Shown here: piece after piece, positions 3,674 to 55,401 of the stretch
Numbering within the stretch: the first letter of the stretch is position 1
Layout of the letters: each line of letters opens with the position of its first letter
DNA from: Thermoprotei archaeon
GTDB taxonomy: Archaea > Thermoproteota > Thermoprotei > Thermoproteales > B15-G16
DNA: 55,614 nt
NCBI GenBank assembly: GCA_003649205.1
Contig: QMRC01000012.1
Coordinates: 1 to 55,614, forward strand
Direction: 5' to 3'
The notes under the pieces: model-generated
What the model saw: only the letters and a program-made list of their open reading frames with translations
What the model was told of the DNA's origin: nothing
Database searches by the model: none
Position numbers and translations under genes: made by a program

Positions 3674-3729
3674 GCTCAGTCTAGGTGTTGCTCCTCATCA
3701 AGTCAGGCCGCAGGGAAATTCATCATGGC
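3674..3729 (-). ncRNA. box C/D guide sRNA targeting 16S rRNA; overlaps the ATPase 3' end
   Basis: Minus strand reads ATGATGA-ATTTCCCTGCGGC-CTGA-cttg-ATGAGGA-GCAACACCTAGA-CTGA. Guides are complementary to recalled crenarchaeal 16S sequences GCCGCAGGGAA and CTAGGTGTTG. Confidence 0.92.
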
Positions 3730-5460: not shown

Positions 5461-5484
5461 TTCATCACCTCTCAAGCAACAGCA

Positions 5485-6321
5485 CTAAACAAAACCAATT
5501 AAATGGAGGTAGAATAGCACAGGCACTAGAACAAACACCATAGACACAGCTAAGTCACGCATAGTGAAGGTCATTCTATAGTAAGTACTGACCTTACCTG
5601 GTCTTATTCTTAAACCTCTAGCCTCTAGAGCGAGTGAAACCTCATAGCTCCTCCTAATCATCAGTACAAATAACGGGATCAACATGTAGAAGTAAGTCCT
5701 TAACTTACCAGGTAGAGAAGCCTCTTCAAGAGAGAGACCACGTAGAGAAATAGCATCACGAACTACGAAGAAATCATTGATGAATAGTGAGATACCTCTA
5801 AACACAAGTGCGAGAGCTACAGCAACTACGTAAGGACACTTAATACTTCTCAAACCCCAAATGAGTTCACGCTCATTAACTATATTGAGCAGTAGCACTG
5901 CTGTGAATATCATAACTAAGAACTTAGAACCGAGAATGAAGATATACTTAAGAGATTCATCCGTGATGAGGATACGCCAAACGAAGACACCTCTCTCAGC
6001 AACCACACGAAGTAACTCAACATCAACCAGTACGTACCTACCTGGTAAGGGAGTAATCAAGGTATAGGAGAGAGCTATTAGCTGAAGAATGCCAATGAAT
6101 ACGAGCACGTACTTCCTAAGAGCACCTAGAGTTACGTGTGAGAGATAAAGCAAAGTACCAGAGAGCAGGAGGAGAGCAATAGCGCTAAAGACATCACCCA
6201 CCATTATCACAGAGATACTCAATGACATTACAATAACTAGCTTAGTCACGACGTGGAGTCTATGAATCCAAGTGGGTTTAGCACATATCCCCAGTAATGT
6301 GTGAAATACCTGTGTACCCAT
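5485..6321 (-). CDS. ECF transporter transmembrane component EcfT
   Basis: IHRLHVVTKL start and two coupling motifs (SLRG, ALEARG). GGTGA RBS precedes ATG 6321. Confidence 0.9.
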   Translation of the reverse strand: MGTQVFHTLLGICAKPTWIHRLHVVTKLVIVMSLSISVIMVGDVFSAIALLLLSGTLLYLSHVTLGALRKYVLVFIGILQLIALSYTLITPLPGRYVLVDVELLRVVAERGVFVWRILITDESLKYIFILGSKFLVMIFTAVLLLNIVNERELIWGLRSIKCPYVVAVALALVFRGISLFINDFFVVRDAISLRGLSLEEASLPGKLRTYFYMLIPLFVLMIRRSYEVSLALEARGLRIRPGKVSTYYRMTFTMRDLAVSMVFVLVPVLFYLHLIGFV

Positions 6322-6376
6322 AATGTCACCACGGTTACCTACATAGTGATAGGAAAAAGAGAGGGAGTACAACATG

Positions 6377-9554: not shown

Positions 9555-11141
9555 TTAAACTGGATAGGCTCCACATACTCGACAGTAGGTAAAGCCCTTG
9601 GGGATTCTAGCTCTGCACTGAGGACATTCCTTACCTACTCCCCCTATGTCCTTAGGAGGACCAAATATACTTCGAAATACTCGGTAGTAGTAAAGCTGCT
9701 CTTTATCTCTAATGACTACCGAGTCCTTCTCCATTATCTTGCATATTGATTCCTGAAATTCCTGATCATCAATCACCTCATCAAAGTACTTGGTTAGTAC
9801 ATTTGTTCCAGCTCCTTCCTCTATAGGGCTTTTAATTCTCCATACGATCTCCTGAGGTAGTACATCTTCGAAAGCTTTCCTCAATATCCATTTACCCCAT
9901 GTAACTCCTCTCTCCTCTCTAACCCTATGCTCAGGTTTAATTAGCATAGCGAAGTACCTAATCCTCTTGTCTAGGTATGGAGTCTTCACCTCAATACCTA
10001 TATGATTACCTAGGGTGATAGAAGAGAAGTTCATAGCTGCCCACAGTACTCTAAGCTCTAGTTCCCTCCTCTCTTCATCCATTCCACATAGGTAGCTGTA
10101 CCCAGCAAATAATTCATCTGCACCATCACCAGTCATTATGCTACTGAAACCTAAGCTCTTAGCTCTTGTCAAACCCAAATATATGACAACGTCGTTCCGT
10201 ACCTGCATAGGATCAAACGTCCTCATAATCTCTATTACGCGAGGTATGTGTCTCAATACCTCATCGATGCTGACCTCGATGATATGGTGTTCCATGTTAA
10301 GGAACTTAGCCATTAAAGAGGCGTACTCACGATCTTTTGCACAGTTACTTTTCACAAGTACTGTTATAGCCTCTACTTTCGTTAGTTTAGATGCTAGGTA
10401 AGCCACTACACTTGAATCAAGACCTCCCGAAAGTAGTACGGCCTCACCTAGATTCCTCCTAACAGCTTCTGCTAGCAATTTGCGAAGTTCTTCGCAAATC
10501 CAGGAAAAAGATGCTCTCTGTATTTGTTCTCTTTCAGAGAGGAACTTCTCACATACGCTAATATCCTCTGGTCTATTGACATTCATAGCTAGACCTTCAT
10601 GAGCTATGACTAGGTACTCTTCATCTAACTCTTCTTCTCTCAGCTTGCTACCATCGATCAGATTTATACCTGAAGGAACTACACTCCTCTCACCAACTTT
10701 AAATACATAGCTCGGTTTTAAGCCTAGAAGTTCGTACACATAGGTAGGGATCATCACAGCTAAGGAACTCCTTCCACACTTCTCATATCTCTCAACTATG
10801 AAGTCTATCAATGAAGGAGTTATCAAGGGGAGATCAGCTGATACAACTAAGTACACTTCAGGTCCTAGATTTCGAATAGCATACCTAATATCCTCAACGA
10901 AGCCAGCACCTGGACTCTCCATGACCTTTACTCTCGGTAACTTCATTTCCTTAACTACCCTAGTTGTCTTGGGGGTGTATCTGCTTGTAAGGACTATCAC
11001 CTCCTCAACGCTTCTAGCCTTAATAAGAGCATTCAGCACTAGCTTAATCATTGGCTCTCCTCTAATCTTTACAAGTGGTTTCTCATCTATACCCATTCTA
11101 GTCCCCTTACCTCCTGCCATGACTAAAGCCTTAACCTTCAC
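9555..11141 (-). CDS. cobY: CobY (GTP:adenosylcobinamide-phosphate guanylyltransferase) fused to an asparagine-synthase-like ATP-pyrophosphatase domain
   Basis: N-terminal ALVMAGGKGTRM..EKPL, VSADLP and NVNRPED. C-terminal LLSGGLDSS, TGDGADELFAGY, KWILRKAF and terminal CPQC..CRVC. Confidence 0.85.
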   Translation of the reverse strand: MKVKALVMAGGKGTRMGIDEKPLVKIRGEPMIKLVLNALIKARSVEEVIVLTSRYTPKTTRVVKEMKLPRVKVMESPGAGFVEDIRYAIRNLGPEVYLVVSADLPLITPSLIDFIVERYEKCGRSSLAVMIPTYVYELLGLKPSYVFKVGERSVVPSGINLIDGSKLREEELDEEYLVIAHEGLAMNVNRPEDISVCEKFLSEREQIQRASFSWICEELRKLLAEAVRRNLGEAVLLSGGLDSSVVAYLASKLTKVEAITVLVKSNCAKDREYASLMAKFLNMEHHIIEVSIDEVLRHIPRVIEIMRTFDPMQVRNDVVIYLGLTRAKSLGFSSIMTGDGADELFAGYSYLCGMDEERRELELRVLWAAMNFSSITLGNHIGIEVKTPYLDKRIRYFAMLIKPEHRVREERGVTWGKWILRKAFEDVLPQEIVWRIKSPIEEGAGTNVLTKYFDEVIDDQEFQESICKIMEKDSVVIRDKEQLYYYRVFRSIFGPPKDIGGVGKECPQCRARIPKGFTYCRVCGAYPV

Positions 11142-11938
11142 CCAAGAACACCCTCCATTACAAGAAGTGCTGTCATTCTAGAAATCTCATTTATTGCACC
11201 AAGCACATCCCCTGTAACATAGCCGAGGACCTTATGCGCAATACACACTATGAGGAGAGCTGTAAACCATGCGGTTGATATCAGGTATATCGAGTTCAGG
11301 ATGCCTACTAGGGGAAATGTCAATACGATACTCAGTACTAGTGAGGTCAGGAGCTTAATCATGCCTCGACTTCTCATGTATTCTATAAAGAGGTGGCCAG
11401 TACCTTCGGATAGAGATTTCCCGTGATAAGCACCTATGATTATGGAGAACTTAGCCATTACCTCAGATGCCGCTAAGAAGTGTGTTAGACCTTTAGACAT
11501 GAGATCAGCCATGACAATACCTGTTACAGTGAATACGAGTACCACCAAGGCAAGACCACCAACTCCTACTCGTTCGTCTCTCATAGCCTTCAGCTTCTTC
11601 TCAGCAGGACCTACACAGAGAAGAGCGTCTCCAAAGTCAGCAAGCCCATCTACATGGTAAAGGCCTGTTATCACGTAGATGAAGCCTAGCGTGAGAAAGC
11701 CCACTATTGTAGGGTTAAAGAACTTCAAGAGGCAGTACGCTATAATTGTAGCTGATGCACCTATGAGGAATCCTATCAGAGGTGATAAGTATGCGAACTT
11801 AGCTGCGTAGACTATGGTATCCTCATCCATGCCTAGGGGTATTGCGGTGAAGAATGATATGAGGCTCTTCAAGCCCTTTACCAGTTCACGTACTGACGCG
11901 AGTTTCCTAGATTTGTCCTCTTTTAAGGAGAAGTTCAT
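11138..11938 (-). CDS. cobS: adenosylcobinamide-GDP ribazoletransferase (cobalamin synthase)
   Basis: FFTAIP, TGLYHVDGLADFGD, AMRDERVG and GYVTGDVLGAINE. Confidence 0.95.
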   Translation of the reverse strand: MNFSLKEDKSRKLASVRELVKGLKSLISFFTAIPLGMDEDTIVYAAKFAYLSPLIGFLIGASATIIAYCLLKFFNPTIVGFLTLGFIYVITGLYHVDGLADFGDALLCVGPAEKKLKAMRDERVGVGGLALVVLVFTVTGIVMADLMSKGLTHFLAASEVMAKFSIIIGAYHGKSLSEGTGHLFIEYMRSRGMIKLLTSLVLSIVLTFPLVGILNSIYLISTAWFTALLIVCIAHKVLGYVTGDVLGAINEISRMTALLVMEGVLG

Positions 11939-13025
11939 AGTTTTTCTCCACCTCTCTCACAACATCATCAACTGTTATCCCTCCTCTGGTCTTGGCTATA
12001 GCAGATATAACAGCACCACCAGCTCCAACCCCTTCCTTGACAGCTCCTCTTTCATAGGCTCTAAGACCATCAAATCTAGATTTACTAAAGTCTATGTTAG
12101 CAGCTAGTATCGGTACATCAGCTATCTGCTCCACAAGACCCTTTATGTCCGATGTTTTATCATGGACTATCCACCTCGTAGTCCCTATAGCTATATTCTC
12201 AACGACACTTTCATCAAGTTCCTTAACGATCTTCAGTATTGCACACATTTGAGTACCTCCAGCCATTAGTACAGGTATTCTCTTAGCAGCTCCTACTACT
12301 ATTCCAGCAAAGGCAGGCATCACGGGGTCACCAACGAGAGAGATCGCCTTTAGGGGGTTGTTCCCTAGCTGACCAAAGGATACCCCAGCTGCTTTGAGAG
12401 CTTGCTCAACAACCCTAATCTTTAGATCGTGAGGATTGTGAGGCATACTACTACTCACCTTTCCTCTTGCATTAACTCCAAGCGCTAAAAGTACTGCTAG
12501 AGCTGTAGTGGTACCTCCTGGAATGCTCTCTCCCACAACTAGGTAGTCGGCTATCATGGAGAGCTGTTCTCCAAGGACCTTCGCTTTAAGAAATACTTCC
12601 TCAACATTTACCACAGCGCTTCCACTTCTTATGTCCTTACCGGGAAAACCGCCTAGACTTATGAAGGGGACTTGAGGCTTTATCCTAGCTCCAGCATCAA
12701 CCACGAGAACTGGTATGTGTGCAAGTCTTAGCGCAGATAGAGTTATTATAGCTGGAGTTGGTATACCCTCAGGGGTTACTGGAACTGTATCTATGCACTT
12801 ACATCTTCCCAAAATGAGAAGCTCTACATCAGCAGCGGGGGTGTACTCCGTTAATTCAGGTGTCTTACCTGCAGCAGAAATACCTGGAATCTTAGCTGTA
12901 TCAGTCGTTCCTATGACACATACAAATACTGGCTTCTTACCTGTGATCTTCTCCAGAAACTCCCTACCTCTCTCCTCCTCATGAAATAGCATGATACCAG
13001 TAAGCTCCTTAGGATGCATAGTCAA
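11907..13025 (-). CDS. cobT: archaeal nicotinate-mononucleotide:base phosphoribosyltransferase
   Basis: IPGISAAG, TPAADVE, GESIPGGTTTA, LMAGGTQM and VKEGVGAGG. Confidence 0.93.
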   Translation of the reverse strand: MTMHPKELTGIMLFHEEERGREFLEKITGKKPVFVCVIGTTDTAKIPGISAAGKTPELTEYTPAADVELLILGRCKCIDTVPVTPEGIPTPAIITLSALRLAHIPVLVVDAGARIKPQVPFISLGGFPGKDIRSGSAVVNVEEVFLKAKVLGEQLSMIADYLVVGESIPGGTTTALAVLLALGVNARGKVSSSMPHNPHDLKIRVVEQALKAAGVSFGQLGNNPLKAISLVGDPVMPAFAGIVVGAAKRIPVLMAGGTQMCAILKIVKELDESVVENIAIGTTRWIVHDKTSDIKGLVEQIADVPILAANIDFSKSRFDGLRAYERGAVKEGVGAGGAVISAIAKTRGGITVDDVVREVEKNYELLLKRGQI

Positions 13026-14768: not shown

Positions 14769-15203
14769 TCAAGTACTCTCAATTACCTTAACAACATCGT
14801 CTACGTACTTCTTAGCTTTCTCCAATTCATCCTCAACATCCTCAATATCGATAATACCCTCATAGAAGACCAATTCATGAAGATTCCTCTCTCTAGCACA
14901 GTACCTATCCCTAAAACCATACTCAGCAATCTTCACATTACGTCTCTCTAATTCTCTAAGCAATCTCCTCCTCTCCCAATGGCTAGATGGAACCTTACCC
15001 ATGAACTTCAGTACAAGCGCATTTGATGCCTGAACAACAGCATTCCAAGCCTTCTCAGCGGCATCCCTAATAGCCATGACATTACCTTCCCTAGTACCTT
15101 TTTGAAACTCCTCAATAGCCTCCTCAATGAACTTCCTTGCATCAGATATGTACACTCTAATCCTGGTATTTACATCAACTGAAGTACACACAGGCAACAC
15201 CAC
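14769..15203 (-). CDS. PaREP1-family (HEPN-like) protein
   Basis: RDAAEKAWNAV, PSSH and NLHELVFYEG. Confidence 0.88.
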   Translation of the reverse strand: MVLPVCTSVDVNTRIRVYISDARKFIEEAIEEFQKGTREGNVMAIRDAAEKAWNAVVQASNALVLKFMGKVPSSHWERRRLLRELERRNVKIAEYGFRDRYCARERNLHELVFYEGIIDIEDVEDELEKAKKYVDDVVKVIEST

Positions 15204-23908: not shown

Positions 23909-23986
23909 TGGAGCCGGGGCCGGGATTCGAACCCGGGATTTACCGGGTCTGCAGCCCGGCGCCTTTGACCGCTCGGCCACCCCGGC
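23909..23986 (-). tRNA. tRNA-Cys(GCA), CCA encoded
   Basis: GCCGGGG acceptor stem, CCGGG-CTGCAGA-CCCGG anticodon arm, TTCGAAT T-loop and 3' TCCA. Confidence 0.98.
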
Positions 23987-36422: not shown

Positions 36423-38084
36423 CTACGAGGTTTCCTGGATATCACGAGAGTATTCTCTCAATACTTCACTAAGCGCAATATCCTCCTTAACCGCATCCTC
36501 AAGAAGTAATAACGCTTCAAGTAACTCCTTCAAACTCTCAACCCTACCAACCAACTTAGCATCAGCAATACCCTCATCAATCAGTTCCTGGTACTTAGAG
36601 ACATCACCACATACCCTCTTAACCTCACTCCTCAACTCCTCACTACACCTAATTAACCTCCTCAGTACCTCCTCCTTAAACTCACGGATAACCTCAAGTA
36701 CTTTCTTTAACTCTTCACAGTTAGCTATAAACCTAGGTCTGTAAGGGACTTCGTACACCGTCTCATCCTCATTAACAAGTACGTACGTAGCTATGTTATC
36801 CTCACCAACAACATCAACTAATTCAGTACCTTCCTCATAGAGGTATGGATTGACACGAACTAGGTAGCAGTAATCAATGTAGTGTAGAATTCGCTCTAGG
36901 TTGTAGCGTAGTAATCTAGCTGACGTTATTGGGCTAGCTAGAATAACGTACATTGTCCAGATGACACCACTCCTACTCACAGCTTCAAGTGCACGCTCAA
37001 GCTCATCACTAGTTAATCCTCGACGAGTAAAGGCGAGCTCGCTATCATTAAAGAACTCAACACCTAGATCAATGACGAATTTCCTACGTAGATTCTCCGG
37101 AATGTACTTCACTATTTCAGCAGCGTACTCAGGTCTAGTTTGGAACTTAACTATGTGGATGTCATGTATGAGCCCTGTCTCAAGTAACTTATCGAAGAGT
37201 TTCCTGAAGTTCTTCGGTGTAACTGCATCATCAACAAGTACCACGCTAACTCTCTTAACGTAGGGTAGAGCTAGGAAGTAGTCAAGAGCATTCTCTATAT
37301 CCTTGATAACCCTATCAACATCGAAGAAAGTTAATCTCCTAACTACCTCATGAAAATCACTACCATAGACCTCCCTATACTCCTTAATCATCCTCGCAAT
37401 ACTACAGTAGACACAACCAGATACGTAGTATCGTGGGCAAGGTGCTAGTGCACCTACTACAGGAACGAGAACACTACCCCTCTCAACGTAATCTCTAGGG
37501 TCAAGACCATAGCTCTCTAGATCCCAATCAACTAGTGGTATCTCACAGGGTTTAGGCACTTCCTCAAGACCTGTAGACACCAACTCATTACCACACTTAA
37601 GGACTAGACCACGGACGTGCCTCAACTCACTGAATTCACCAGCTAGGAGGTCCTCTAAATAGGTACTGAATAGATTACTTAACGTCCGTAGAGCTTGCAT
37701 GTGAACTCCACGAATGACGATGTCGACACCAACGTAGAGTAGGTACAGCTGTGGATACACCGTAGGACCCCATCCACCAGCTATGAACTTCACACCAGGA
37801 ACCCTGCTCCTGACCATAGACACTAACTTCCTATCTACAGGAGCACACATCTTAAATGATGAGATACCAACTACATCAAGCTCTCTAATCACCTCATCAA
37901 GTACTGATGGATTGACATCTATCACAATGTCTCCACTATCATCCTCCCTAGCGAACTTGTTTGGATCAAACAACCTAACTCTACAACCCATGTCCTTCAA
38001 TACCTTAGCTACGTATAGAAGCCCTAGGTAGATATCTCGTTCACCATGTGGAGGTGCTATCAAAAGAACATTTACATCAGGCAT
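36423..38084 (-). CDS. B12-binding-domain radical SAM protein
   Basis: VLLIAPP..LGLLYVA, VVGISS and IAGGWGPT; cluster motif CPRYYVSGCVYC (Cx7Cx2C); LVDD and LGVE. Confidence 0.88.
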   Translation of the reverse strand: MPDVNVLLIAPPHGERDIYLGLLYVAKVLKDMGCRVRLFDPNKFAREDDSGDIVIDVNPSVLDEVIRELDVVGISSFKMCAPVDRKLVSMVRSRVPGVKFIAGGWGPTVYPQLYLLYVGVDIVIRGVHMQALRTLSNLFSTYLEDLLAGEFSELRHVRGLVLKCGNELVSTGLEEVPKPCEIPLVDWDLESYGLDPRDYVERGSVLVPVVGALAPCPRYYVSGCVYCSIARMIKEYREVYGSDFHEVVRRLTFFDVDRVIKDIENALDYFLALPYVKRVSVVLVDDAVTPKNFRKLFDKLLETGLIHDIHIVKFQTRPEYAAEIVKYIPENLRRKFVIDLGVEFFNDSELAFTRRGLTSDELERALEAVSRSGVIWTMYVILASPITSARLLRYNLERILHYIDYCYLVRVNPYLYEEGTELVDVVGEDNIATYVLVNEDETVYEVPYRPRFIANCEELKKVLEVIREFKEEVLRRLIRCSEELRSEVKRVCGDVSKYQELIDEGIADAKLVGRVESLKELLEALLLLEDAVKEDIALSEVLREYSRDIQETS

Positions 38085-38187: not shown

Positions 38188-39075
38188 GTGAGCTATGTCT
38201 TGAGGATAGTACCGATAGCATTTGAATCTCTTGGTGTTAGGTCAATGGCAACCTTCATAGAGACACCAGATACCAGGATAGTAATTGACCCAAGTGCAGC
38301 ACTTGCACCACGTAGATTTGGTCTACCACCTCACCCTCTTGAGAAGCAGAGACTTCAAGAACTACTGAAGGAAATTGAGAGATATTGTAGTCAAGCCGAG
38401 GTAGTGATAATAACTCACTACCACTACGATCACCATAATCCAGCACAACCAGAGCTACTTGATGGGAAGTACGTACTAATTAAGCACCCAACAAATCACA
38501 TAAACATATCTCAGAGAATTAGAGCAGCTAGATACCTGAAGTCGATTAGAGAAAGATGTAGATTGAAAGCATTAGAGTATGGAGAGAACAAGGAACTACA
38601 TTTCGGGAATACTAGAGTAAGAACCTCACCACCACTACCACATGGTGCAGATTCAAGATTGGGGTACATATTCATGGTACTCATTGAGTACGGCGATGAG
38701 AAACTACTATTTACCTCCGATGTTGAGGGACCAGCATTGAGAGAACAGGTTGAATGGATTAAACACGTAAGACCAACAGTACTAATACTAGATGGCCCAA
38801 TGACCTACATGCTAGGTCACAGATACAGTAATGACTTACTGAATTTCGCCCTCAACTCAATAGTTGAGATACTTAATGAGTGCCCCATACATACACTGAT
38901 TATAGATCACCATTTTATGAGAGATGTAGAGTACAGGAAGTACGTTAATGAAATTCTCTCAAGAACTAAACGAGATGTAAGTATCGTATCAGCAGCTGAA
39001 TTTCTCGGTAGAGAACCTCTACTACTCGAAGCTAAGAGAAGAGAACTCTATTCCAAGTACCCAGTTAGTCAATAG
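38188..39075 (+). CDS. metallo-beta-lactamase-fold hydrolase (UPF0282-like), paralog of 21741..22826
   Basis: ESLGVRSMAT, ITHYHYDHH, TSDVEG, LDGPMTY and DHHFMR. Confidence 0.9.
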   Translation: MSYVLRIVPIAFESLGVRSMATFIETPDTRIVIDPSAALAPRRFGLPPHPLEKQRLQELLKEIERYCSQAEVVIITHYHYDHHNPAQPELLDGKYVLIKHPTNHINISQRIRAARYLKSIRERCRLKALEYGENKELHFGNTRVRTSPPLPHGADSRLGYIFMVLIEYGDEKLLFTSDVEGPALREQVEWIKHVRPTVLILDGPMTYMLGHRYSNDLLNFALNSIVEILNECPIHTLIIDHHFMRDVEYRKYVNEILSRTKRDVSIVSAAEFLGREPLLLEAKRRELYSKYPVSQ

Positions 39076-39126
39076 AGTTAAGGTAGATAAAGGTCATCCT
39101 ACTTTACTAGAGTAGGTGATTTCACT

Positions 39127-40104
39127 GTGTACACTACTCACGTTGGTAGTTTTCCACTAGATTTCACTAGAGATAATGTATTGAGGGTTTTCCACGATAT
39201 GATCAATATAGGTATCGACTATCCACCCTATCCACAACTACGTAACTTCATAAAGATCTTCCTAGATCCACTAGTGGATATACATGTCCTAAAGTTGGTT
39301 AACAGTAAGTACGTGATCAACATATCGCTAAGTGAATTGAAGAACTTACCCCTACCTGCTGTAAGGCTTGAGGAAGCTGAAATAGTAGCTAGTATTGTGA
39401 AGAAGGAGAGGATATGTGTAGAAGCTATTCGAGGTTGCGTAACTGGGCCCTTTACCCTTGCTTCGGAAATTCAGATATCTGAAAGAGAGACACGAGGATT
39501 ATTCACATCTGCTTTAAGTAGTAAGGATTTCGTGCTCAAGTACATGACTAGAATTGTTAGGGAATTTGTCACGTATCTACATGATGTTCTTGGATTCAAG
39601 TTCATAGTAATTGATGAGCCAGTACTCTCAGTAATAGTTGGCTCGAGACGCATACTATTTGATTACACGATTGAGGAAATTAGTAAATGCCTTGATGAGG
39701 TTCTTCAGGGTGTAGAACTAGCTGGTGTACATGTCTGTGGTAGGGTACCTCCACTACTTAAGGACGTTCTACTGAGTACTCGGTACGTTAAAGTTCTCGA
39801 TCATGAGTTTAAGGACAATCCAAAGAATCTAACGGTCTACACTAAGGACGAACTGGAGAAGTATGATAAGTTCATCTCATTTGGTTGCGTATCATCGAGG
39901 AAACCAGTGATTGAGTCAGTAGAGGAGATAATGGACGTAGTTAAGAGAGGTATTGACACGTTTGGTAGTAGATTGCTGATGATTAAGCCAGATTGTGGTT
40001 TTAGGGGATTAGCTGGATTCTTTGAGAATAAGGAAAAAGCCTATGAGGTAGCTATTGAGAAGTTGAGGAGGATTGTTGAGGTAAAACGTAGATTACATGT
40101 ATAG
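39127..40104 (+). CDS. core (MesA-like) methionine synthase / methylcorrinoid:homocysteine methyltransferase
   Basis: Single MetE catalytic barrel with HVGSFP, VTGPFTL, IDEP and Zn ligands HVC, DHE, PDCG; no N-terminal folate domain. Confidence 0.85.
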   Translation: MYTTHVGSFPLDFTRDNVLRVFHDMINIGIDYPPYPQLRNFIKIFLDPLVDIHVLKLVNSKYVINISLSELKNLPLPAVRLEEAEIVASIVKKERICVEAIRGCVTGPFTLASEIQISERETRGLFTSALSSKDFVLKYMTRIVREFVTYLHDVLGFKFIVIDEPVLSVIVGSRRILFDYTIEEISKCLDEVLQGVELAGVHVCGRVPPLLKDVLLSTRYVKVLDHEFKDNPKNLTVYTKDELEKYDKFISFGCVSSRKPVIESVEEIMDVVKRGIDTFGSRLLMIKPDCGFRGLAGFFENKEKAYEVAIEKLRRIVEVKRRLHV

Positions 40105-40114
40105 GGGGTTTGCC

Positions 40115-40759
40115 ATGGAGGATCTAATCAATAAGCTTAAGGTAGCGATCATTGAGGGTGATGAGGAAGAAGCTCTGAAGGTAACTAAGGAATTGCTGGA
40201 GAGGGGTATAGATCCTAAATTAATTATTGAACGGGCATTGGAACCAGCTATGAAAATTGTAGGTGAGAAGTTTGAACGAGAAGAGTACTTCATACCTGAA
40301 GTCATGTTAGCAGCTGAGGTATTTAAGAAGGTTATGGAGTTTCTCAAACCTCATCTTGGTCAAGAGGTAGGTGAGAAGTCAAAGGGTAGAGTAGTGATAG
40401 GTACTGTTCGTGGTGATATACATGAGCTCGGTAAGAATCTTGTTGCTACAATGCTTTCAGTAGCTGGGTTTGAGGTTATAGATCTTGGTGTTGATGTGAG
40501 TCCAGAGAAATTCATTGAAGCAGTGGAGAAGTATAGACCTGATGTACTTGGTCTTAGCGCCTTAATGACTACGACAATGATTGAGCAGAAGGTAGTTATT
40601 GAGGAGTTGAAGAGGAGAGGATTAAGGGATAAAGTCAAGGTCATTGTTGGGGGAGCACCTGTTACAGAAGAATGGGCTAGAGAGATCGGTGCTGATGGTT
40701 ACGCTGCAAATGCGTACGAGGCTGTAAGATTAGTTAAGAAGTTGCTAGGTGTTGAGTAG
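40115..40759 (+). CDS. methyltransferase corrinoid protein (MttC/MtbC family)
   Basis: Cap domain, GDIHELGKN (DxHxxG), DLGVDV, GLSALMTTT and VGGAP. Confidence 0.96.
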   Translation: MEDLINKLKVAIIEGDEEEALKVTKELLERGIDPKLIIERALEPAMKIVGEKFEREEYFIPEVMLAAEVFKKVMEFLKPHLGQEVGEKSKGRVVIGTVRGDIHELGKNLVATMLSVAGFEVIDLGVDVSPEKFIEAVEKYRPDVLGLSALMTTTMIEQKVVIEELKRRGLRDKVKVIVGGAPVTEEWAREIGADGYAANAYEAVRLVKKLLGVE

Positions 40760-42202
40760 ATGCCAAGACCTACAATCTCGTTATTGAGTAAAAACGATAT
40801 TGAGCTAATACATGAGAAGGCGCTAGAGGTTCTCGAGGTAATTGGTGTCAGGATTGAGAGTAGAAGAGTTGTGAACCTACTTAAGAGCTACGGTCTTGAG
40901 GTTAGTGAGGGTAATGTAGTTAAGTTTCCAAGAGATCTAGTTGAGAGTAAAGTTAAGGATTGCCCACATGAATTCACACTCTATGATAGAGAAGGAAAGC
41001 CGAGATTATTGGTTGGAGGTGATAGAACTTACTTCAACCCAGGTTCAGCAGCTACGAAGATACTTGACTTGAGACAGAACACCATTAGGGATCCCACACT
41101 TTGGGATTTACGCGACATAGCTATCCTAGTTAATGAACTTGAGAACATTGATGCTCAGAGCACAGCTGTTGTACCTCATGAATTTCCACCAGAGACCCGA
41201 GATAGAGTTAGACTATATCCACTTCTGAAGTACTCGACTAAGCCTATAGTCACAGGAGCCTTTACGGTAGATGGTGTACACGACATGGTTAAGCTCTTAA
41301 GCATCTTCATCAGCGACCTCGATAAAAGACCAATAGCTATATTCGATGTTTGTCCATCACCACCCCTTAAGTGGAGTGAAGTCACTGTGGAGAATTTAGT
41401 TGATTGTGCTAAGTATGGACTACCTATAGAGATAATATCAATGCCATCTCTCGGCGCTACATCACCAGTGACAATTGCTGGTGCTCTAGTGCAGCACCAT
41501 GCTGAAGTACTTTCAGGTATAGTAATAGCTCAGTTAGTTAGAAAGGGTGTACCTGTTGTATATGGTGGATCACCTTCGACATTTGACATGAGGTATGGGA
41601 CACCGAACATAGTTGCTCCTGAAGCCCTTCTGGTGTCACTTGCATATGTTGAGATAGCAAAGTATCTGAACTTACTAACACACACGTACATGGCTTTAAG
41701 CGACACTATCTTACTCGACTATCAATCTGGTGTAGAGACAGGTATCAGCGCTCTTGTAGCTTGTTTAAGAGGAATAAACGTTGTCTCAGGTCCTGGTATG
41801 TTAGAGCACGAGAGTACTCAATGTCTTGAGAAGTTAGTTCTCGATAATGAGGTCTGTGGATTAGTTAGGAGGTTTAGTAGAGGATTCAACATCGGTATAG
41901 AGGAGTTAGCTATTGACTTACTAAGAGATGTAGGTCCTGGTGGTACATTTCTATCTAAGAAGCATACCGTTAAGCACTTTAAGAAGGAAATTTACCATCC
42001 TCACATACTATTAAGATATGACATGAGAGAATGGATGAGGAGAGGTAGTCCCTCACTCCTGGAGAGAGCTAAACAGGAAGTTGAGCAGTTGCTAAAGAGG
42101 GGCACTAGAGAGTTACCTCCATCGGACCTACTTCAGGAACTAAATAGAGCAATTAATGGAATACTTAGGAAATTCGGTATTACAGTAAGGGAACTCCCTT
42201 AA
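40760..42202 (+). CDS. non-pyrrolysine MttB-superfamily methyltransferase
   Basis: IHEKALEVLEVIG, SPPL, GATSPVTIAGAL, GVPVVYG, DYQSGVE, LVLDNE and VGPGGTFL; no in-frame amber codon. Confidence 0.93.
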   Translation: MPRPTISLLSKNDIELIHEKALEVLEVIGVRIESRRVVNLLKSYGLEVSEGNVVKFPRDLVESKVKDCPHEFTLYDREGKPRLLVGGDRTYFNPGSAATKILDLRQNTIRDPTLWDLRDIAILVNELENIDAQSTAVVPHEFPPETRDRVRLYPLLKYSTKPIVTGAFTVDGVHDMVKLLSIFISDLDKRPIAIFDVCPSPPLKWSEVTVENLVDCAKYGLPIEIISMPSLGATSPVTIAGALVQHHAEVLSGIVIAQLVRKGVPVVYGGSPSTFDMRYGTPNIVAPEALLVSLAYVEIAKYLNLLTHTYMALSDTILLDYQSGVETGISALVACLRGINVVSGPGMLEHESTQCLEKLVLDNEVCGLVRRFSRGFNIGIEELAIDLLRDVGPGGTFLSKKHTVKHFKKEIYHPHILLRYDMREWMRRGSPSLLERAKQEVEQLLKRGTRELPPSDLLQELNRAINGILRKFGITVRELP

Positions 42203-42218
42203 GGTATAGATTTCACCA

Positions 42219-43514
42219 CTATGGAGTTGGTACAATACCAGGCACTTTGGGAAAAGGTACTGCTTCCCACACATACCTAAGACCTAGTATGTACCTAGTA
42301 AATCTCTCCACGCCTAATCCAAAACCAGCACTTGGAGGTATACCAATCTTTGCTAACTCTAAAAACCATGAGTACCGTTCTAAGTCCTCACCCATTTGTC
42401 GCAACCTTTCAACGATCTTATCGTATCTGTACTCACGTTCTCCTCCATCCACAACTTCTCCAAACCCACAAGGTAGTATGAGGTTGAAATCTCTATTGTA
42501 GCCTGGTTTCTCTGGATCCTCTAGGTAGTAGAAGCCTCTACTAGTTTTCGGATACTTAATAATCCAGAAAGGTTCATCACCTAGGTACTCACTCAACTTT
42601 GTTTCTCCTTCCTGTGTTAACTCATGTCCTTTAGGAGTTTCTATACCTAACTTCCTCAGTATGTCAGTAGCTTCATCATATGTAAGTACCTTAAAGGGCT
42701 TCTTAGGTACCTTAAGTGAGGGATTGAACTTCATCACAACATCTCTACACGTTTCAAGAACTTTTTCCATCGTGTAAACTACTAAATCCTCACATAGCTT
42801 CATCACATCCCACATCGAGGCATAAGCCCACTCTACATCGACCTGCGTAAATTCACAGAGATGCCTACCAGTGTGCATGTTTTCTAATGGTTCCTCCCTA
42901 ACATTCCTAGCTACAAAGAATATCTTCTCTAGAGAGGCCACCGCAGCTTGCTTAAACATTATTACGCTAGACATAAGTTCGTACTCATACCCATAGAGCT
43001 TTGTTTTCAGTTTCCTTGCTCCTCTCAAACCTGGATCACTACACGGACTAATTATTGGTGGTAAGAGCTCTACAAAGCCACTCTTTATAAGGAAGTCCCT
43101 CACGTAGTATAGAACCCACTGCTGGATCTTAAGTACATTAGCGTACTTTGGAGACCTTATAATGAAGTAACTGTACCTTGCGAACTTCCTCACATCACTT
43201 GGATCTACCTCCTTAAGATCTACGGGTAGTTCAGGAGGAGCCTTAACTATGGTCCTTAACTCACATACTTTCAATACATCACCTTCCACAAAACCCTTGA
43301 CATACACCAAGCTCTCTCTCGTTAGGTTCCTTACTACCTCTACCTGAGGTACTATGAACGAAGCCACACCTGTTGAATCACGTAACTCAAGAATACACCT
43401 ATCTCCAACGAACTTCAAATCGTGAACCCAGGCAAGTAGCTCTACCTCACCACCATGTCTAACTACATCACGTACGTACATAGACTTACTGGGGTATAGG
43501 CGATCGAACCTCAT
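42219..43514 (-). CDS. AsnRS-like protein: archaeal asparagine synthetase A-type core with retained OB-fold
   Basis: LAWVHD..LRDSTG OB fold. Class IIb core with LLPPIISPCSDPG, SSVIMFKQ, RHLCEFTQVD, GGERE and GFGLGVER. Confidence 0.8.
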   Translation of the reverse strand: MRFDRLYPSKSMYVRDVVRHGGEVELLAWVHDLKFVGDRCILELRDSTGVASFIVPQVEVVRNLTRESLVYVKGFVEGDVLKVCELRTIVKAPPELPVDLKEVDPSDVRKFARYSYFIIRSPKYANVLKIQQWVLYYVRDFLIKSGFVELLPPIISPCSDPGLRGARKLKTKLYGYEYELMSSVIMFKQAAVASLEKIFFVARNVREEPLENMHTGRHLCEFTQVDVEWAYASMWDVMKLCEDLVVYTMEKVLETCRDVVMKFNPSLKVPKKPFKVLTYDEATDILRKLGIETPKGHELTQEGETKLSEYLGDEPFWIIKYPKTSRGFYYLEDPEKPGYNRDFNLILPCGFGEVVDGGEREYRYDKIVERLRQMGEDLERYSWFLELAKIGIPPSAGFGLGVERFTRYILGLRYVWEAVPFPKVPGIVPTP

Positions 43515-48777: not shown

Positions 48778-49563
48778 ATGACGACAACCATAGAGCTACC
48801 GAAGAAACTAGTAGAGAAACTAAAGGAGAGAGGACTAGACCCAACAACACACATCGTAGACACCCTAGTACGAGAACTAGAGCTAGATCCAGTAGAGGAA
48901 GCAGAGACAAGAATAGAACTCGCAGAGAAATACCTAGAAGAAGCGAGGAAATACATCGAGAGAGGCGACGCAGTACAAGCAAGCGAGAAAATGTACAAAG
49001 TAGTCGAGGAATGCATAAAGGCACTAGCACACATGCACAAACTACCTGAGTACGAAAAAGCAGTGAAAGAAGGAAGATGGTGGACACAACTACTAGGAAA
49101 AGCAGCTAGAAAACTAGCTAAACTACTCAACGAACCAAGAATTGAATCAACATGGTCAATCGCCTACGACATACACGTATGGGGATTCCACGAAGCAAAG
49201 TACACAGTAGAAGACATAGCACAAGACATACAGCACATAGAGTGGCTACTCAACCACACAAAGAAACAAATCAAAACAACAACCAAACACCAATCAAACA
49301 ACAACTCAATTAAGAAACAAAGAGAGCAGAAACAACAAAGAGCAGAGAGGGAAAACCCACATGACACTAGTGAGAGCAAGAGTAGAGATACACGGAACAA
49401 AGAAGCAAGTAACAGCAACAGCACTAGTAGGTACAGGAGCAACACTAACACTCATAGACAGAGAAGTAGCAGACGAGATAGGAGTCAAGTACACAGGAAG
49501 AAAAATCAAACTAGTAGTAGCAGACGGACACGAACTACCCAGCGAACTAGCTATAGTGGATAA
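48778..49563 (+). CDS. PaREP1-family protein (domain ends near residue 165; low-complexity tail)
   Basis: GDAVQASEKMYK, GRWWT and HVWGFHE. Confidence 0.85.
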   Translation: MTTTIELPKKLVEKLKERGLDPTTHIVDTLVRELELDPVEEAETRIELAEKYLEEARKYIERGDAVQASEKMYKVVEECIKALAHMHKLPEYEKAVKEGRWWTQLLGKAARKLAKLLNEPRIESTWSIAYDIHVWGFHEAKYTVEDIAQDIQHIEWLLNHTKKQIKTTTKHQSNNNSIKKQREQKQQRAERENPHDTSESKSRDTRNKEASNSNSTSRYRSNTNTHRQRSSRRDRSQVHRKKNQTSSSRRTRTTQRTSYSG

Positions 49564-49811: not shown

Positions 49812-49912
49812 CCCCCGGTAGCTCAGCCTGGCAGAGCGGCCGGCTGTAGTGGGGTAGGAAAGAACAACCCGCAGCAACCGGCAGGCCGGGGGTTCAAATC
49901 CCCCCCGGGGGA
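49812..49912 (+). tRNA. tRNA-Tyr(GTA) with a 27-nt intron at 37/38 (49850-49876)
   Basis: CCCCCGG/CCGGGGG acceptor with C1-G72 and A73, GCCGG-CTGTAG|ACCGGC anticodon arm. BHB motif: CTGT/GCAG helix with AGT and CAA bulges. CCA not encoded. Confidence 0.97.
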
Positions 49913-53428: not shown

Positions 53429-53956
53429 TTGTTGGGTTGTATTGTTTGGGTTCCTAGGAGGATTGTTAAGGAGATTGAGAGGAGGGGTTTGTGTGTTGAG
53501 GATGTTTTAGTTGAAGTTCTTGCTGAGAAGTTTAATCTTGATTCTCAGAGTGTTGCTGAGGTTCGTCTTGAGCTTGCTGAGAAGTACTTGGAGGAAGCTA
53601 GGAGCTATGTTGAGAAGGGTGATGCTGTTCAAGCAAGTGAGAAGTTGTATAAGGTTGTTGAGGAGTGTGTGAAGGCTCTTGCTGAACTCCTTAACCTTCC
53701 TGAGGTTGAGAAGGCTAAGAGGTTAGGGAGGTGGTTTACTTGGCTTCTTGGTAGTGCTTCTTCGAGGGCTTCTAAGGTGCTTGGTGAGCCGAGGATTGAG
53801 TTTGTCTGGGGTATTGCGTATGACCTACATGTCTGGGGTTTTCATGAGGTGAAGTACGGTATTGATGTTGTTGAGATGAGATTTCCTCATATTGAGTGGC
53901 TTCTACGGTACACTAAGGAGAAGGTGAAGGAGCTTTCGAAGGGTTCTCAGAGGTAG
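53429..53956 (+). CDS. PaREP1-family protein
   Basis: GDAVQASEKLYK, GRWFT and LHVWGFHE. Confidence 0.9.
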   Translation: MLGCIVWVPRRIVKEIERRGLCVEDVLVEVLAEKFNLDSQSVAEVRLELAEKYLEEARSYVEKGDAVQASEKLYKVVEECVKALAELLNLPEVEKAKRLGRWFTWLLGSASSRASKVLGEPRIEFVWGIAYDLHVWGFHEVKYGIDVVEMRFPHIEWLLRYTKEKVKELSKGSQR

Positions 53957-54017
53957 CTTAGTGTGTTTAGCTACCTTAATTTACCTGTTAACTCATTTAC
54001 TGATTGAGGTGGGAAGA

Positions 54018-54518
54018 GTGGAGTTCACTGTTATTGAGGTTCCTGATGTTGTTTATGAGGTCCTTGCTCGAAAGGCTAAGTACTTGGGTAGGACGGTAGT
54101 AGATGTGATTGTGGACTCTGTAATCTCTAATCTCGATCCTGAATCCAGAGTTGAGGTGTACCTCAAACTCCATGATAAGTACCTTAGCGATGCTGAGGAT
54201 CTGTATAGGAGAGGTGACCTTACTCAAGCTAGTGAGAAGTACTGGGGTGCTGTCTACGCTATCTTGAGTGCTATTGCCGAGTCGGGAGGGTTGCCACATT
54301 TTAGACATGGTCATTTTGAGGAATTGATTGAGTTACTTAGTGAGGAGCTTAATGACCGTGAGTTACCTAAGCTCTTCGCTAGTGCTGAGAGACTTCACGC
54401 AAATTTCTACCATGGTTTTCTCAGGAAGTTTGGATTTGAGATTCATCGTGAAGACGTGCTTAAGCTAGTTGAGAAGCTTCGTAATTACCTAACTGAGCTT
54501 AGGAGTACTCGGTGCTAG
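54018..54518 (+). CDS. PaREP1-family protein with RHH-like N-terminus
   Basis: VIEVPDVVYEVL, GDLTQASEKYWGA and AERLHANFYH; GAGGTG RBS precedes GTG 54018. Confidence 0.9.
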   Translation: MEFTVIEVPDVVYEVLARKAKYLGRTVVDVIVDSVISNLDPESRVEVYLKLHDKYLSDAEDLYRRGDLTQASEKYWGAVYAILSAIAESGGLPHFRHGHFEELIELLSEELNDRELPKLFASAERLHANFYHGFLRKFGFEIHREDVLKLVEKLRNYLTELRSTRC

Positions 54519-54567: not shown

Positions 54568-55401
54568 ATGAAGGACAGATCATCTATGAATGTCATTGAT
54601 AGGCTCAAGAAGGTTTTCATCAAGTATCCTCAGGTTCTCCTAGCGTATCTCTACGGTAGCTATGCTAGGGGTTGTCCTAGTCCATTAAGTGATGTCGATA
54701 TAGCTATCTTGACTAGTGATCGTGGTGTAGTGCTTGATCTCGTAGCTGATGTAGCTAGAGAACTTGGTATACCTGAGAGTCAGGTATCGATTACTGACTT
54801 GGAGCTTATGGATCCTCTAATTAGGTTGAAGATACTTCGTGAAGGTGTTGAACTTGTTAATAGGGGTGTTGATACTCGATCACTTCTCCCTCGTGATCAG
54901 TCCTATGTCGAGGTCTATGAACTTGAGGAGAGGTCGAGTTCTCTAAGTTGGTTGAGAGGTGATCCTATAGATATTGTCTTGATTAGGGATGTAGTTGCTA
55001 GAATTCATGAGGATGTTCGTGATCTAGAGGAGTTACTTAGCTTTGGTTTTGAGAGGGTTATTGGTGATAAGCATTTGAGGAAGTCCTTTGAGAGAACGAT
55101 GCAGACTCTCATAGAGTCTATGGTGGATCTACTGAGACATATCGTAGCTGGGTTGAATCTGGGTGTAGCGATGTACTACAGGGACTACGTTGATTTTGCT
55201 GTTAAGGGGGGTGTCATCTCTAGTGATGTAGCTGAGCAACTACGGAGATTCATACCGATTAGACATGCACTAGTACACAGGTACCGTAGTCTGGATTACG
55301 AGAAGTTATGGGGTGAAGCTCCTAAACTAGTACAGTTAGCTAATCAACTAGTTAGTGAAGTTAGGGAATTCCTGAAGAGGAGATTGGGGCTCAAGGTATA
55401 G
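54568..55401 (+). CDS. fused MNT (MntA) nucleotidyltransferase and HEPN (HepT/DUF86) RNase
   Basis: YLYGSYARG...SDVDIA; ERTMQ..IES..D; RHALVHRY (Rx4H). Confidence 0.9.
   Translation: MKDRSSMNVIDRLKKVFIKYPQVLLAYLYGSYARGCPSPLSDVDIAILTSDRGVVLDLVADVARELGIPESQVSITDLELMDPLIRLKILREGVELVNRGVDTRSLLPRDQSYVEVYELEERSSSLSWLRGDPIDIVLIRDVVARIHEDVRDLEELLSFGFERVIGDKHLRKSFERTMQTLIESMVDLLRHIVAGLNLGVAMYYRDYVDFAVKGGVISSDVAEQLRRFIPIRHALVHRYRSLDYEKLWGEAPKLVQLANQLVSEVREFLKRRLGLKV

Follow-up and report, generated by a model that had tools for sequence, protein, structure and literature searches.

The physiological methyl donor of the archaeal core methionine synthases has been an open question since 1999; free methylcobalamin is held to be unphysiological, and a corrinoid protein has been postulated as the donor (PMC7005905). 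Based on co-occurrence, Price et al. predicted MtrA or CoFeSP for this role (PMC7857596). Here we analysed a stretch of 55,614 nucleotides (the window) from contig QMRC01000012.1 of a Thermoprotei archaeon, in which a MetE-type core methionine synthase (Mes), a corrinoid protein (Cor) and a homologue of the methyltransferase MttB are encoded by three consecutive genes. In the reading that we find best supported, and on balance probable, a methyl group from a methylated amine would be passed by the MttB homologue to the cobalt of Cor and from there by Mes to homocysteine, giving methionine. Of the genomic hints at what serves as physiological donor for a core methionine synthase, the window is the clearest to date. 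The gene of a candidate donor protein follows that of the synthase after 10 bp and is itself followed by the gene of its loading enzyme; related loci include an activase as well. The donor question is now directly testable with three or four recombinant proteins. If the reading is true, homocysteine joins the short list of acceptors of MttB-type systems (coenzyme M, tetrahydrofolate and tetrahydromethanopterin, H4MPT), and anaerobic archaea would draw the methyl group of methionine and S-adenosylmethionine (SAM) straight from methylated amines. Reconstructions of methionine synthesis would then change for Thermoproteota, Bathyarchaeia and Asgard archaea, where the genes are annotated as 'MetE' and 'trimethylamine methyltransferase'.

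We file the window system as a variant of the three-component corrinoid methyltransferase systems. It shares with the MtgB/MtgC/MtgA, MttB/MttC/MtbA, MtcB, MtpB and MtyB systems, with RamA, a first methyltransferase (MT1) of the MttB superfamily encoded directly downstream of a DxHxxG corrinoid protein, a genome-encoded RamA/RACo activase and, as in MtgB, a leucine at the pyrrolysine position. It differs from them in the second methyltransferase (MT2), which would be a homocysteine methyltransferase of the MetE type and not an enzyme of the pterin-binding (MtgA/MtqA), URO-D (MtbA) or MtrH type. MT1 and Cor are adjacent in the window, the MT2 slot is held by Mes, whose family is not known to act in MttB systems, and the RACo gene lies on another contig (C1) of the source genome (G000; below, G, C and L numbers denote genomes, contigs and loci).

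The closest precedent is the bacterial MtgBCDE system of Ruegeria pomeroyi and Sinorhizobium meliloti, reported in 2025, in which an MttB-family enzyme and a homocysteine methyltransferase are proposed to act around one corrinoid protein; in S. meliloti the genes are colocalised (PMC12478193). In the published model homocysteine receives its methyl group from methyl-folate via the essential MtgD (PF00809) acting in reverse (PMC12478193). A conceptually similar shared-corrinoid link between amine demethylation and methionine synthesis has already been published for Proteobacteria. The homocysteine module in those bacteria is MtgE of the MetH/BHMT type (PF02574) together with the pterin enzyme MtgD, two families of which neither was found in the source genome, whereas the window has an acceptor module of the MetE type and an anaerobic archaeal host. 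Non-pyrrolysine MttB of the same orthologous kind and MtbC-like corrinoid proteins are also known from mtrH-mttB-mttC-ramA clusters of TACK and Asgard archaea without methyl-coenzyme M reductase (MCR), namely Culexarchaeia (PMC9723716) and Atabey- and Freyarchaeia (PMC11291895). In the available text of these reports MtrH stands on the acceptor side and the clusters are read as catabolic, whereas the window has Mes in that place; their supplementary cluster figures might show MetE-like neighbours. Within the open-access and bioRxiv literature, supplementary figures not covered, no description was found of an MttB-corrinoid-core-MetE operon or of an MtrH-corrinoid-Mes-RACo cluster.

The three genes and their products

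From the list of open reading frames (ORFs) and direct reading of the DNA, the locus consists of three co-directional, almost gap-free ORFs, as an earlier note made from the sequence had described, preceded by a short spacer.

39076 to 39126, + strand: 51 bp separating Mes from the MBL-fold gene upstream, with A/T-rich stretches and GGTGA ahead of the GTG start; a possible promoter or ribosome-binding region
39127 to 40104, + strand: Mes, single-barrel MetE-type (core) methionine synthase, putative MT2; 325 aa, GTG start after GGTGA
40115 to 40759, + strand: Cor, MtbC/MtgC-like corrinoid protein, putative methyl carrier; 214 aa, or 220 aa if started at 40097
40760 to 42202, + strand: non-pyrrolysine MttB-superfamily methyltransferase, putative MT1; 480 aa, PF06253

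Mes ends with TAG at 40102-40104 and is separated by 10 bp from the Cor ATG at 40115. An alternative in-frame ATG at 40097 would give an 8-bp overlap with Mes; the start at 40115 is most likely, because the alignment to the NCBIfam MtgC model begins at residue 7 of the longer form, which corresponds to 40115. The TAG of Cor (40757-40759) directly abuts the ATG of MttB at 40760. The gene that follows downstream (42219-43514, for a class II aminoacyl-tRNA synthetase) lies in convergent orientation, so the unit ends at 42202. We infer from the 10-bp and 0-bp spacing that the trio is one operon; its boundaries were drawn from gene spacing, with ORFs called mechanically.

In the proposed scheme the MttB homologue would move a methyl group from a methylated amine onto the Co(I) cobamide of its cognate Cor. 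Mes would activate homocysteine at its zinc site and take the methyl group from methyl-Co(III), and cobamide oxidised to Co(II) would be re-reduced by the RACo/RamA-type activase encoded on C1. Gene order, domains, catalytic and ligand residues and comparative pattern were observed, whereas the way in which the methyl group flows, the Cor-Mes contact and each of the substrates are inferred. The lack of a RamA-type reactivase in the window had been remarked upon in the earlier note, and indeed a scan of its 57 ORFs found no RACo/RamA domain, but the genome does hold one RACo on C1.

Mes has the single MetE C-terminal barrel, without the folate-binding half, that characterises MesA and other core MetE proteins of Methanothermobacter and Dehalococcoides (PMC7857596, PMC7005905). 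PF01717 (Meth_synt_2) was the sole family reported (47.4 bits, cut-off 21), no N-terminal Meth_synt_1 barrel was present, and with 325 aa the protein falls within the broad class of core MetE proteins (PF01717 barrel alone, about 300-350 aa). The zinc ligands H202, C204, E227 and C290 line up with the His/Cys/Glu/Cys of Thermotoga maritima MetE and were invariant in alignments of 26 and 82 rows, so that the intact zinc site described earlier is borne out. The homocysteine ligands S8, Q37 and D163 were invariant in the 26-row alignment and kept in 82, 82 and 81 of the 82 rows, respectively, the sole exception at the seven ligand positions being one D-to-E change at 163; this includes every MttB-linked row. 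Q37 stands opposite a Glu of T. maritima MetE and D163 lies within an IDEP motif; the Glu and Asp of T. maritima MetE aligned to them are the residues that hold the amino group of homocysteine. In E. coli homocysteine is bound by S433, E484 and D599, and Ser/Gln/Asp with His/Cys/Glu/Cys is exactly the residue set given for MesA and MesC, including the Gln (PMC7857596). We propose that Mes is built for homocysteine binding and is a putative methyl-corrinoid:homocysteine methyltransferase. A need for a methyl-corrinoid is predicted for MesA-type proteins and for Mes alike; they differ in the predicted donor, which for Mes would be the dedicated MtbC-type Cor encoded next door and not MtrA or CoFeSP.

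Mes further differs from the described core synthases in its scores against curated models. The best NCBIfam model, NF002119 (PRK00957), gave 108.7 bits and was not passed (cut-off 258), and Mes was also below the cut-offs of NF004712/PRK06052 (60 vs 387 bits), NF003317/PRK04326 (59.4 vs 406 bits) and the MetE model TIGR01371 (15.8 vs 929.95 bits). A Mes-family profile recovered 78 representatives at E <= 1e-30 among 1.84 billion. Two representatives that pass NF002119 (P0198, 365.6 bits; P0209, 328.6 bits) are 26% identical to Mes over the full length and 31% identical over 223 aa, respectively, and NF002119-passing proteins score only about 99-147 bits on the Mes-family profile, compared with more than 190 bits inside the family. 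We treat the Mes family as separate, with the MesA-type model as its nearest, because it lies below every curated cut-off and is 26% identical to P0198; this sets it apart from MesA-D by way of NCBIfam models and unnamed representatives rather than named reference proteins. NF002119 presumably equals MesA, judged from the model length of 306 positions and the pattern in control genomes, and NF004712 presumably equals MesC. PDB entry 3rpd, named as MesD (PMC7857596), matches the Mes-family profile only at E 2e-4. Records of the Mes family came from Methanomethylicia, Desulfurococcaceae, Ignisphaera, Thermogladius, Thermofilum, Bathyarchaeota, Nitrososphaerales and Promethearchaeota; for Thermoprotei, the available text of Price et al. 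reports only a split MetE (PMC7857596).

It is very improbable that Mes methylates another thiol, such as coenzyme M or a small thiol, or that the chain runs in reverse. The model for methylcobalamin:coenzyme M methyltransferase, NF004889, does match weakly (20.4 bits, cut-off 244), and the MT2 slot of methylamine systems is usually held by a zinc thiol methyltransferase, MtbA or MtaA. However, the fold family of Mes is MetE and not URO-D, no MCR was found in the source genome, and as for the reverse direction, thioethers donate methyl groups poorly to Co(I).

Cor matched PF02310 (111.8 bits) and the cap domain PF02607 (B12-binding_2, 81.3 bits) and passed TIGR02370 for methyltransferase-cognate corrinoid proteins (230.1 bits, cut-off 215.3), while it stayed under the cut-off of MtgC_2 (238.1 vs 370 bits). 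The DxHxxG motif reported earlier was found as D-I-H-E-L-G, and D101, H103 and G106 are invariant in 40 corrinoid proteins; Cor is predicted to bind a cobamide in the His-on mode. On the Cor tree the window protein falls inside a clade of 10 MttB-adjacent corrinoid proteins (support 95 in the Shimodaira-Hasegawa-like approximate likelihood ratio test, SH-aLRT). On one side of this tree are 19 MttB-adjacent rows (SH-aLRT 89), apart from a 14-row clade of the Mes/MtrH type (SH-aLRT 100). Because of this grouping, Cor appears to travel with MttB and not with Mes, and the tree pattern implies that Cor-MttB units were placed beside Mes repeatedly.

A complex prediction for Mes with Cor gave a score of 0.60, whereas the best of three controls reached 0.07; runs agreed in at least 66% of contacts, and the predicted local distance difference test (pLDDT) of the partners was at least 82. 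Of 80 solved complexes 58 attained the mark used, as did 2 of 110 mismatches (rough counts, own alignments used), and of those attaining it only seven of the 80 solved complexes, and both mismatches, had scores of 0.60 or less. The prediction lends weak support to a contact between Mes and Cor.

The MttB homologue is an uninterrupted ORF without an in-frame UAG, in agreement with the earlier description, and matched PF06253 with 292.9 bits (cut-off 25), its residues 4-451 covering positions 29-478 of the 500 in the profile. Over its full length it could be aligned with both MtgB (9yce/2qne, E 1.5e-65) and Methanosarcina barkeri MttB (7xcl, E 4e-60). Leu313 stands opposite the pyrrolysine X334 of the latter, and this column holds L, I or V in 31 of 34 aligned MttB rows. 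An identity as true trimethylamine methyltransferase was rejected (TIGR02369, 376.3 bits vs cut-off 525; Leu instead of pyrrolysine). The glycine-betaine ligands of MtgB are Y97, R312, H348 and F356 (PMC13080624). At these positions, assigned manually in the alignment to 9yce, whose chain index is offset by 2, the window protein has S96, H308, S343 and E351, none of the four being identical. Counted from the rows, the signature S-H-L-S-E is common to 23 of the 34, and the clade thus forms a conserved orthologous group. As none of the four MtgB ligands is kept, the substrate is probably not glycine betaine, which was rejected by this ligand rule only, and the earlier likening of the system to betaine-homocysteine methyltransferase is weakened. 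The conserved Glu351, together with the loss of the carboxylate-binding Arg and His, leads us to speculate about a substrate without a carboxylate.

Partners of the Mes family in other loci

The neighbourhood of Mes was surveyed in the best 80 of 137 confirmed loci in genome contigs, with counts of neighbours that vary with the length of the flanks and with where contigs end. With tblastn a corrinoid protein was found in 24 loci and MttB in five (L012, L015, L036, L075 and L082). Clustering of 874 ORFs with a scan of representatives gave Cor in 22, an MtrH-like protein in 21, RACo in 20 and MttB in five loci; at least one of these four was present in 32 loci and none in 48, several of which are short contigs. 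The commonest layout was found in records of the Desulfurococcales type and reads MtrH-like ... RACo < Cor <> Mes (L041, L047, L052, L057, L058, L059, L062, L069, L076 and others). Four MtrH-type clusters (L025, L041, L052 and L057) contain an MTHFR-like gene inside. We read such an MtrH-RACo-Cor-Mes cluster as a putative MetH-like methionine synthase made up of four parts, its homocysteine module being of the MetE type. Next to Mes in 12 of the 80 loci, mostly of the MtrH type, we observed a protein of about 242 aa without a Pfam match (cluster c4, for example L047:6962-7690, - strand), which may be a further component.

The general linkage of the Mes family is to MtbC-type corrinoid proteins and not to cdh genes. 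The supply by Mtr or the Wood-Ljungdahl pathway, taken in the earlier note as the norm for core synthases, does not fit this family, whose members are instead found near MtbC-like corrinoid proteins, MtrH-like enzymes and RACo. Mes looks like a plug-in acceptor module served by interchangeable units of a donor enzyme and a corrinoid protein, the donor enzyme being MtrH-like in most lineages and MttB in the window. Conversely, the window Mes occupies the slot where orthologous Cor-MttB modules elsewhere have an MtrH-like second methyltransferase.

The linkage to MttB has arisen more than once. In L012, an independent assembly from the same genus, the order radical SAM-MBL-Mes-Cor-MttB is kept with 89-100% amino acid identity. 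On the Mes tree (82 proteins; all trees were made by a quick method with SH-aLRT support only) MttB linkage needs at least five changes, for the window with L012, L015, L036, L152, and L082 with L075, and on the MttB tree (33 proteins) adjacency to Mes needs at least four. Members of one MttB clade (support 99) have as MT2-type neighbour either Mes or an MtrH-like gene, depending on the locus. L015 holds a tight operon, Mes-RACo-Cor-MttB, whose ORFs overlap and share one strand; Mes and MttB are divergent in L152 and L075 and convergent in L036. As L036 is nested among MtrH-type loci on the Mes tree, it reads as a donor swap. A chance adjacency of Mes and MttB was rejected because of these repeated independent co-localisations on both trees. 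In L075:4345-8357 (labelled Methylomirabilota) and L082:5116-8374 (Bathyarchaeia), Mes is flanked on one side by a distant MttB (29% identity) and on the other by a LarA-like gene of the lactate racemase family, with URO-D-type genes and an amino-acid permease nearby. Their Mes proteins are near-identical despite the differing labels, which suggests transfer or a binning error.

Among 401 genomes sampled from the phylum, MttB was present in 61 (E <= 1e-20), Mes in 80 (E <= 1e-40) and both in 36. Of the genomes that carry the best MttB orthologues (29), 24 also encode Mes by hand count, compared with 80 of 401 overall, a difference that overstates the link since related genomes are not independent. 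Among those 29, Mes and MttB are adjacent only in the source genome and in G259. The closest MttB orthologues of this sample lie in 29 loci; Cor was directly upstream in 16 of them, an MtrH-like gene was present in three and RACo in two.

These data also bear on the view that the genes are unrelated neighbours, Mes being a housekeeping enzyme fed by CoFeSP or another corrinoid protein, as predicted for MesB and MesC, and Cor-MttB an independent amine demethylase. We regard this as quite improbable. CoFeSP is the predicted donor of core synthases in Wood-Ljungdahl organisms (PMC7857596), CdhD is encoded in the source genome, and most genomes with both genes keep Mes and MttB far apart, for example by 36-53 kb or at opposite ends of single-contig genomes. 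On the other hand, the spacing in the window favours one transcript, at least five independent co-localisations were counted, the four-gene operon of L015 includes RACo, and corrinoid proteins of the MtbC type, not cdh genes, are what the family is linked to.

Methyl acceptors in the source genome and in genus g10

In the source genome (93.8% complete, 31 contigs) the window Mes is the only PF01717 match and the window MttB the only one in the whole genome. Proteins of the MetH/BHMT type (PF02574) and of the Pterin_bind family (PF00809) were not found at this completeness, nor were MCR alpha and an MtmB homologue found in this genome; the host is thus non-methanogenic, as had been assumed. The genome has two copies of CdhD, one MtrH, three URO-D-type genes, one RACo and three corrinoid proteins in all. 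The only MtrH and the only RACo (602 aa with a 2Fe-2S domain; L092:11750-13558, the RACo/RamA domain being located at C1:292814-293545) belong to one cluster at C1:284300-293560 (L092:4300-13558), with the order MtrH, corrinoid protein, URO-D-type (425 aa), major facilitator superfamily (MFS) transporter, URO-D-type (421 aa), URO-D-type (425 aa) and RACo. Its layout matches the Mto operon for O-demethylation of methoxy-aromatics (MtoA/C/B/D plus MFS) of Methermicoccus (PMC8630106), and its corrinoid protein is far from the window Cor on the Cor tree. The third corrinoid protein, an orphan at C2:65364-65993 (L093:7329-8015, - strand), is 48% identical to the window Cor; there is no methyltransferase nearby, and it adjoins a PLD-like gene and a Vut_1 vitamin-uptake transporter.

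Acceptors on the methyl-corrinoid side could be narrowed down in genus g10 of the same class, of which eight genomes were available (81-99% complete, four of them single-contig). Each had exactly one PF01717 match, which was Mes, and each had RACo; none of the eight had PF02574 or MtrH. In the five genomes checked, neither Pterin_bind nor CdhD was found, and URO-D was found in one. MttB was present in six of the eight genomes, with one to three corrinoid proteins per genome. In all three loci examined, a second corrinoid protein was followed by an uninterrupted, non-pyrrolysine MtmB homologue:

L155, 5209 to 6579, - strand: MtmB-family gene
L156, 7696 to 9087, + strand: MtmB-family gene
L158, 7379 to 8734, + strand: MtmB-family gene

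These proteins have 451-463 aa and score 246-266 bits with PF05369, and the three genomes are without MCR-type context, MtrH and pterin methyltransferases. G083, a g10 genome without MttB, has a URO-D-Cor-RACo cluster. Across g10, no methionine synthase other than Mes could be recognised, nor any other acceptor-side partner for the MT1-corrinoid modules.

A wider reading, which we put forward tentatively, is that Mes represents a fifth family of core methionine synthases, in Thermoproteota and neighbouring archaea, whose donor would be a dedicated MtbC-type corrinoid protein loaded by MtrH-like, MttB, non-pyrrolysine MtmB or URO-D-type enzymes. Lineages such as g10 might then obtain the methyl group of methionine and SAM only from environmental methylated amines or methoxy compounds, independently of pterins.

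Several observations weigh against the route from amine to methionine. Adjacency to MttB is exceptional, as only five of the 80 Mes loci have it, and no partners lie within 6 kb of Mes in its nearest relatives from other genera (L013 and L014, 56-59% identity). Seen from MttB, Mes was within 7 kb in only one of the 29 loci of the closest orthologues, and seven of the eight best orthologues (50-57% identity) had neither Cor nor Mes within 7 kb. On these counts the trio, whose conservation the earlier note had offered as a check, is rare. A fusion ('Rosetta stone') search found no longer Mes-containing protein at E <= 1e-10 among 6264 candidates, and so no Mes-corrinoid fusion protein, which is weak evidence. 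G083 and G403 of g10 keep Mes and RACo without any MttB, therefore Mes is not dependent on MttB. A genome of the same genus as the source (G401, 71% complete) has a second core-MetE paralogue, 25% identical to Mes, which keeps the HVCG, E and NCGF motifs; it lies at a contig edge (L153:2-784; G401:C96) and adjoins DNA syntenic with the source genome at C2:172-177 kb, a few kb from the cdh genes. The paralogue was not found in the source genome, yet in view of G401 and the completeness of 93.8% it is not secure that Mes is the sole methionine synthase there. Finally, the source genome has MtrH with its own corrinoid protein, in addition to CdhD/CoFeSP, so H4MPT could be the destination of the methyl group on Cor, or Mes could have another supply.

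The role of Mes as second methyltransferase, as suggested in the earlier note, therefore stands in part: its ligands are kept, it holds the slot of the MtrH-like enzyme, its linkage to MttB recurs, and no other PF01717, PF02574 or Pterin_bind protein was found, but MttB beside Mes is rare. Likewise, the inventory recommended for the genome showed no PF02574 of the MetH type and no further PF01717, whereas CdhD, MtrH and RACo are present, so the amine route need not be the only methyl supply.

The main rival explanation is a shared and mainly catabolic hub, in which methyl groups from Cor-MttB would go via the MtrH of C1 to H4MPT and the Wood-Ljungdahl pathway, and Mes would tap the same pool or be co-regulated. 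All of MtrH, CdhD and RACo are encoded in the genome, and orthologous Cor-MttB modules adjoin MtrH-like genes in three of the 29 loci. The mtrH-mttB-mttC-ramA clusters of non-methanogenic archaea are treated in this way (PMC9723716, PMC11291895), and in the Ruegeria MtgBCDE model one corrinoid protein serves both demethylation and methionine synthesis (PMC12478193). However, MtrH sits in its own C1 cluster with its own, distant corrinoid protein, three URO-D-type genes, an MFS transporter and RACo, while the spacing in the window couples Mes, not MtrH, to Cor-MttB. In g10, moreover, no MtrH, pterin-binding enzyme or CdhD was seen that could accept the methyl group. We therefore consider the shared hub unlikely, and prefer the transfer from the amine through MttB and Cor to Mes.

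Other features of the window

Upstream of the trio two genes were noted:

36423 to 38084, - strand: B12-binding radical SAM protein, 553 aa, divergent from the MBL-fold gene
38188 to 39075, + strand: MBL-fold protein directly upstream of Mes; NF003287, 293.3 bits vs cut-off 286

Both were left out as parts of the system, since they adjoin the trio only in the same-genus locus L012.

Cobamide genes are located at 3703-6375 and 9555-13025, both on the - strand. They encode a double ABC ATPase with CbiQ (a cobalt/vitamin transporter of the energy-coupling factor type), CobS and a CobT-like phosphoribosyltransferase, and the same region has a CobY-like nucleotidyltransferase fused to an asparagine-synthase-like domain. 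These genes for assembly of the cobamide loop would count in favour of the route from amine through MttB and Cor to Mes.

A scan with Rfam at gathering scores gave two tRNAs only in the window and no riboswitch or other RNA element. One tRNA gene is at 23912-23986; the other, at 49812-49912, spans 101 bases and may therefore contain an intron. Metagenome runs that match the window DNA came from sediment and hydrothermal vent; two of them held at least half of the sampled words, and one may be the source. Seven runs were listed in all, each of DNA and none of RNA. The window further contains four genes of the PaREP1 family (14769-15203, 48778-49563, 53429-53956 and 53961-54518) and a HepT-like/nucleotidyltransferase pair at 54568-55401.

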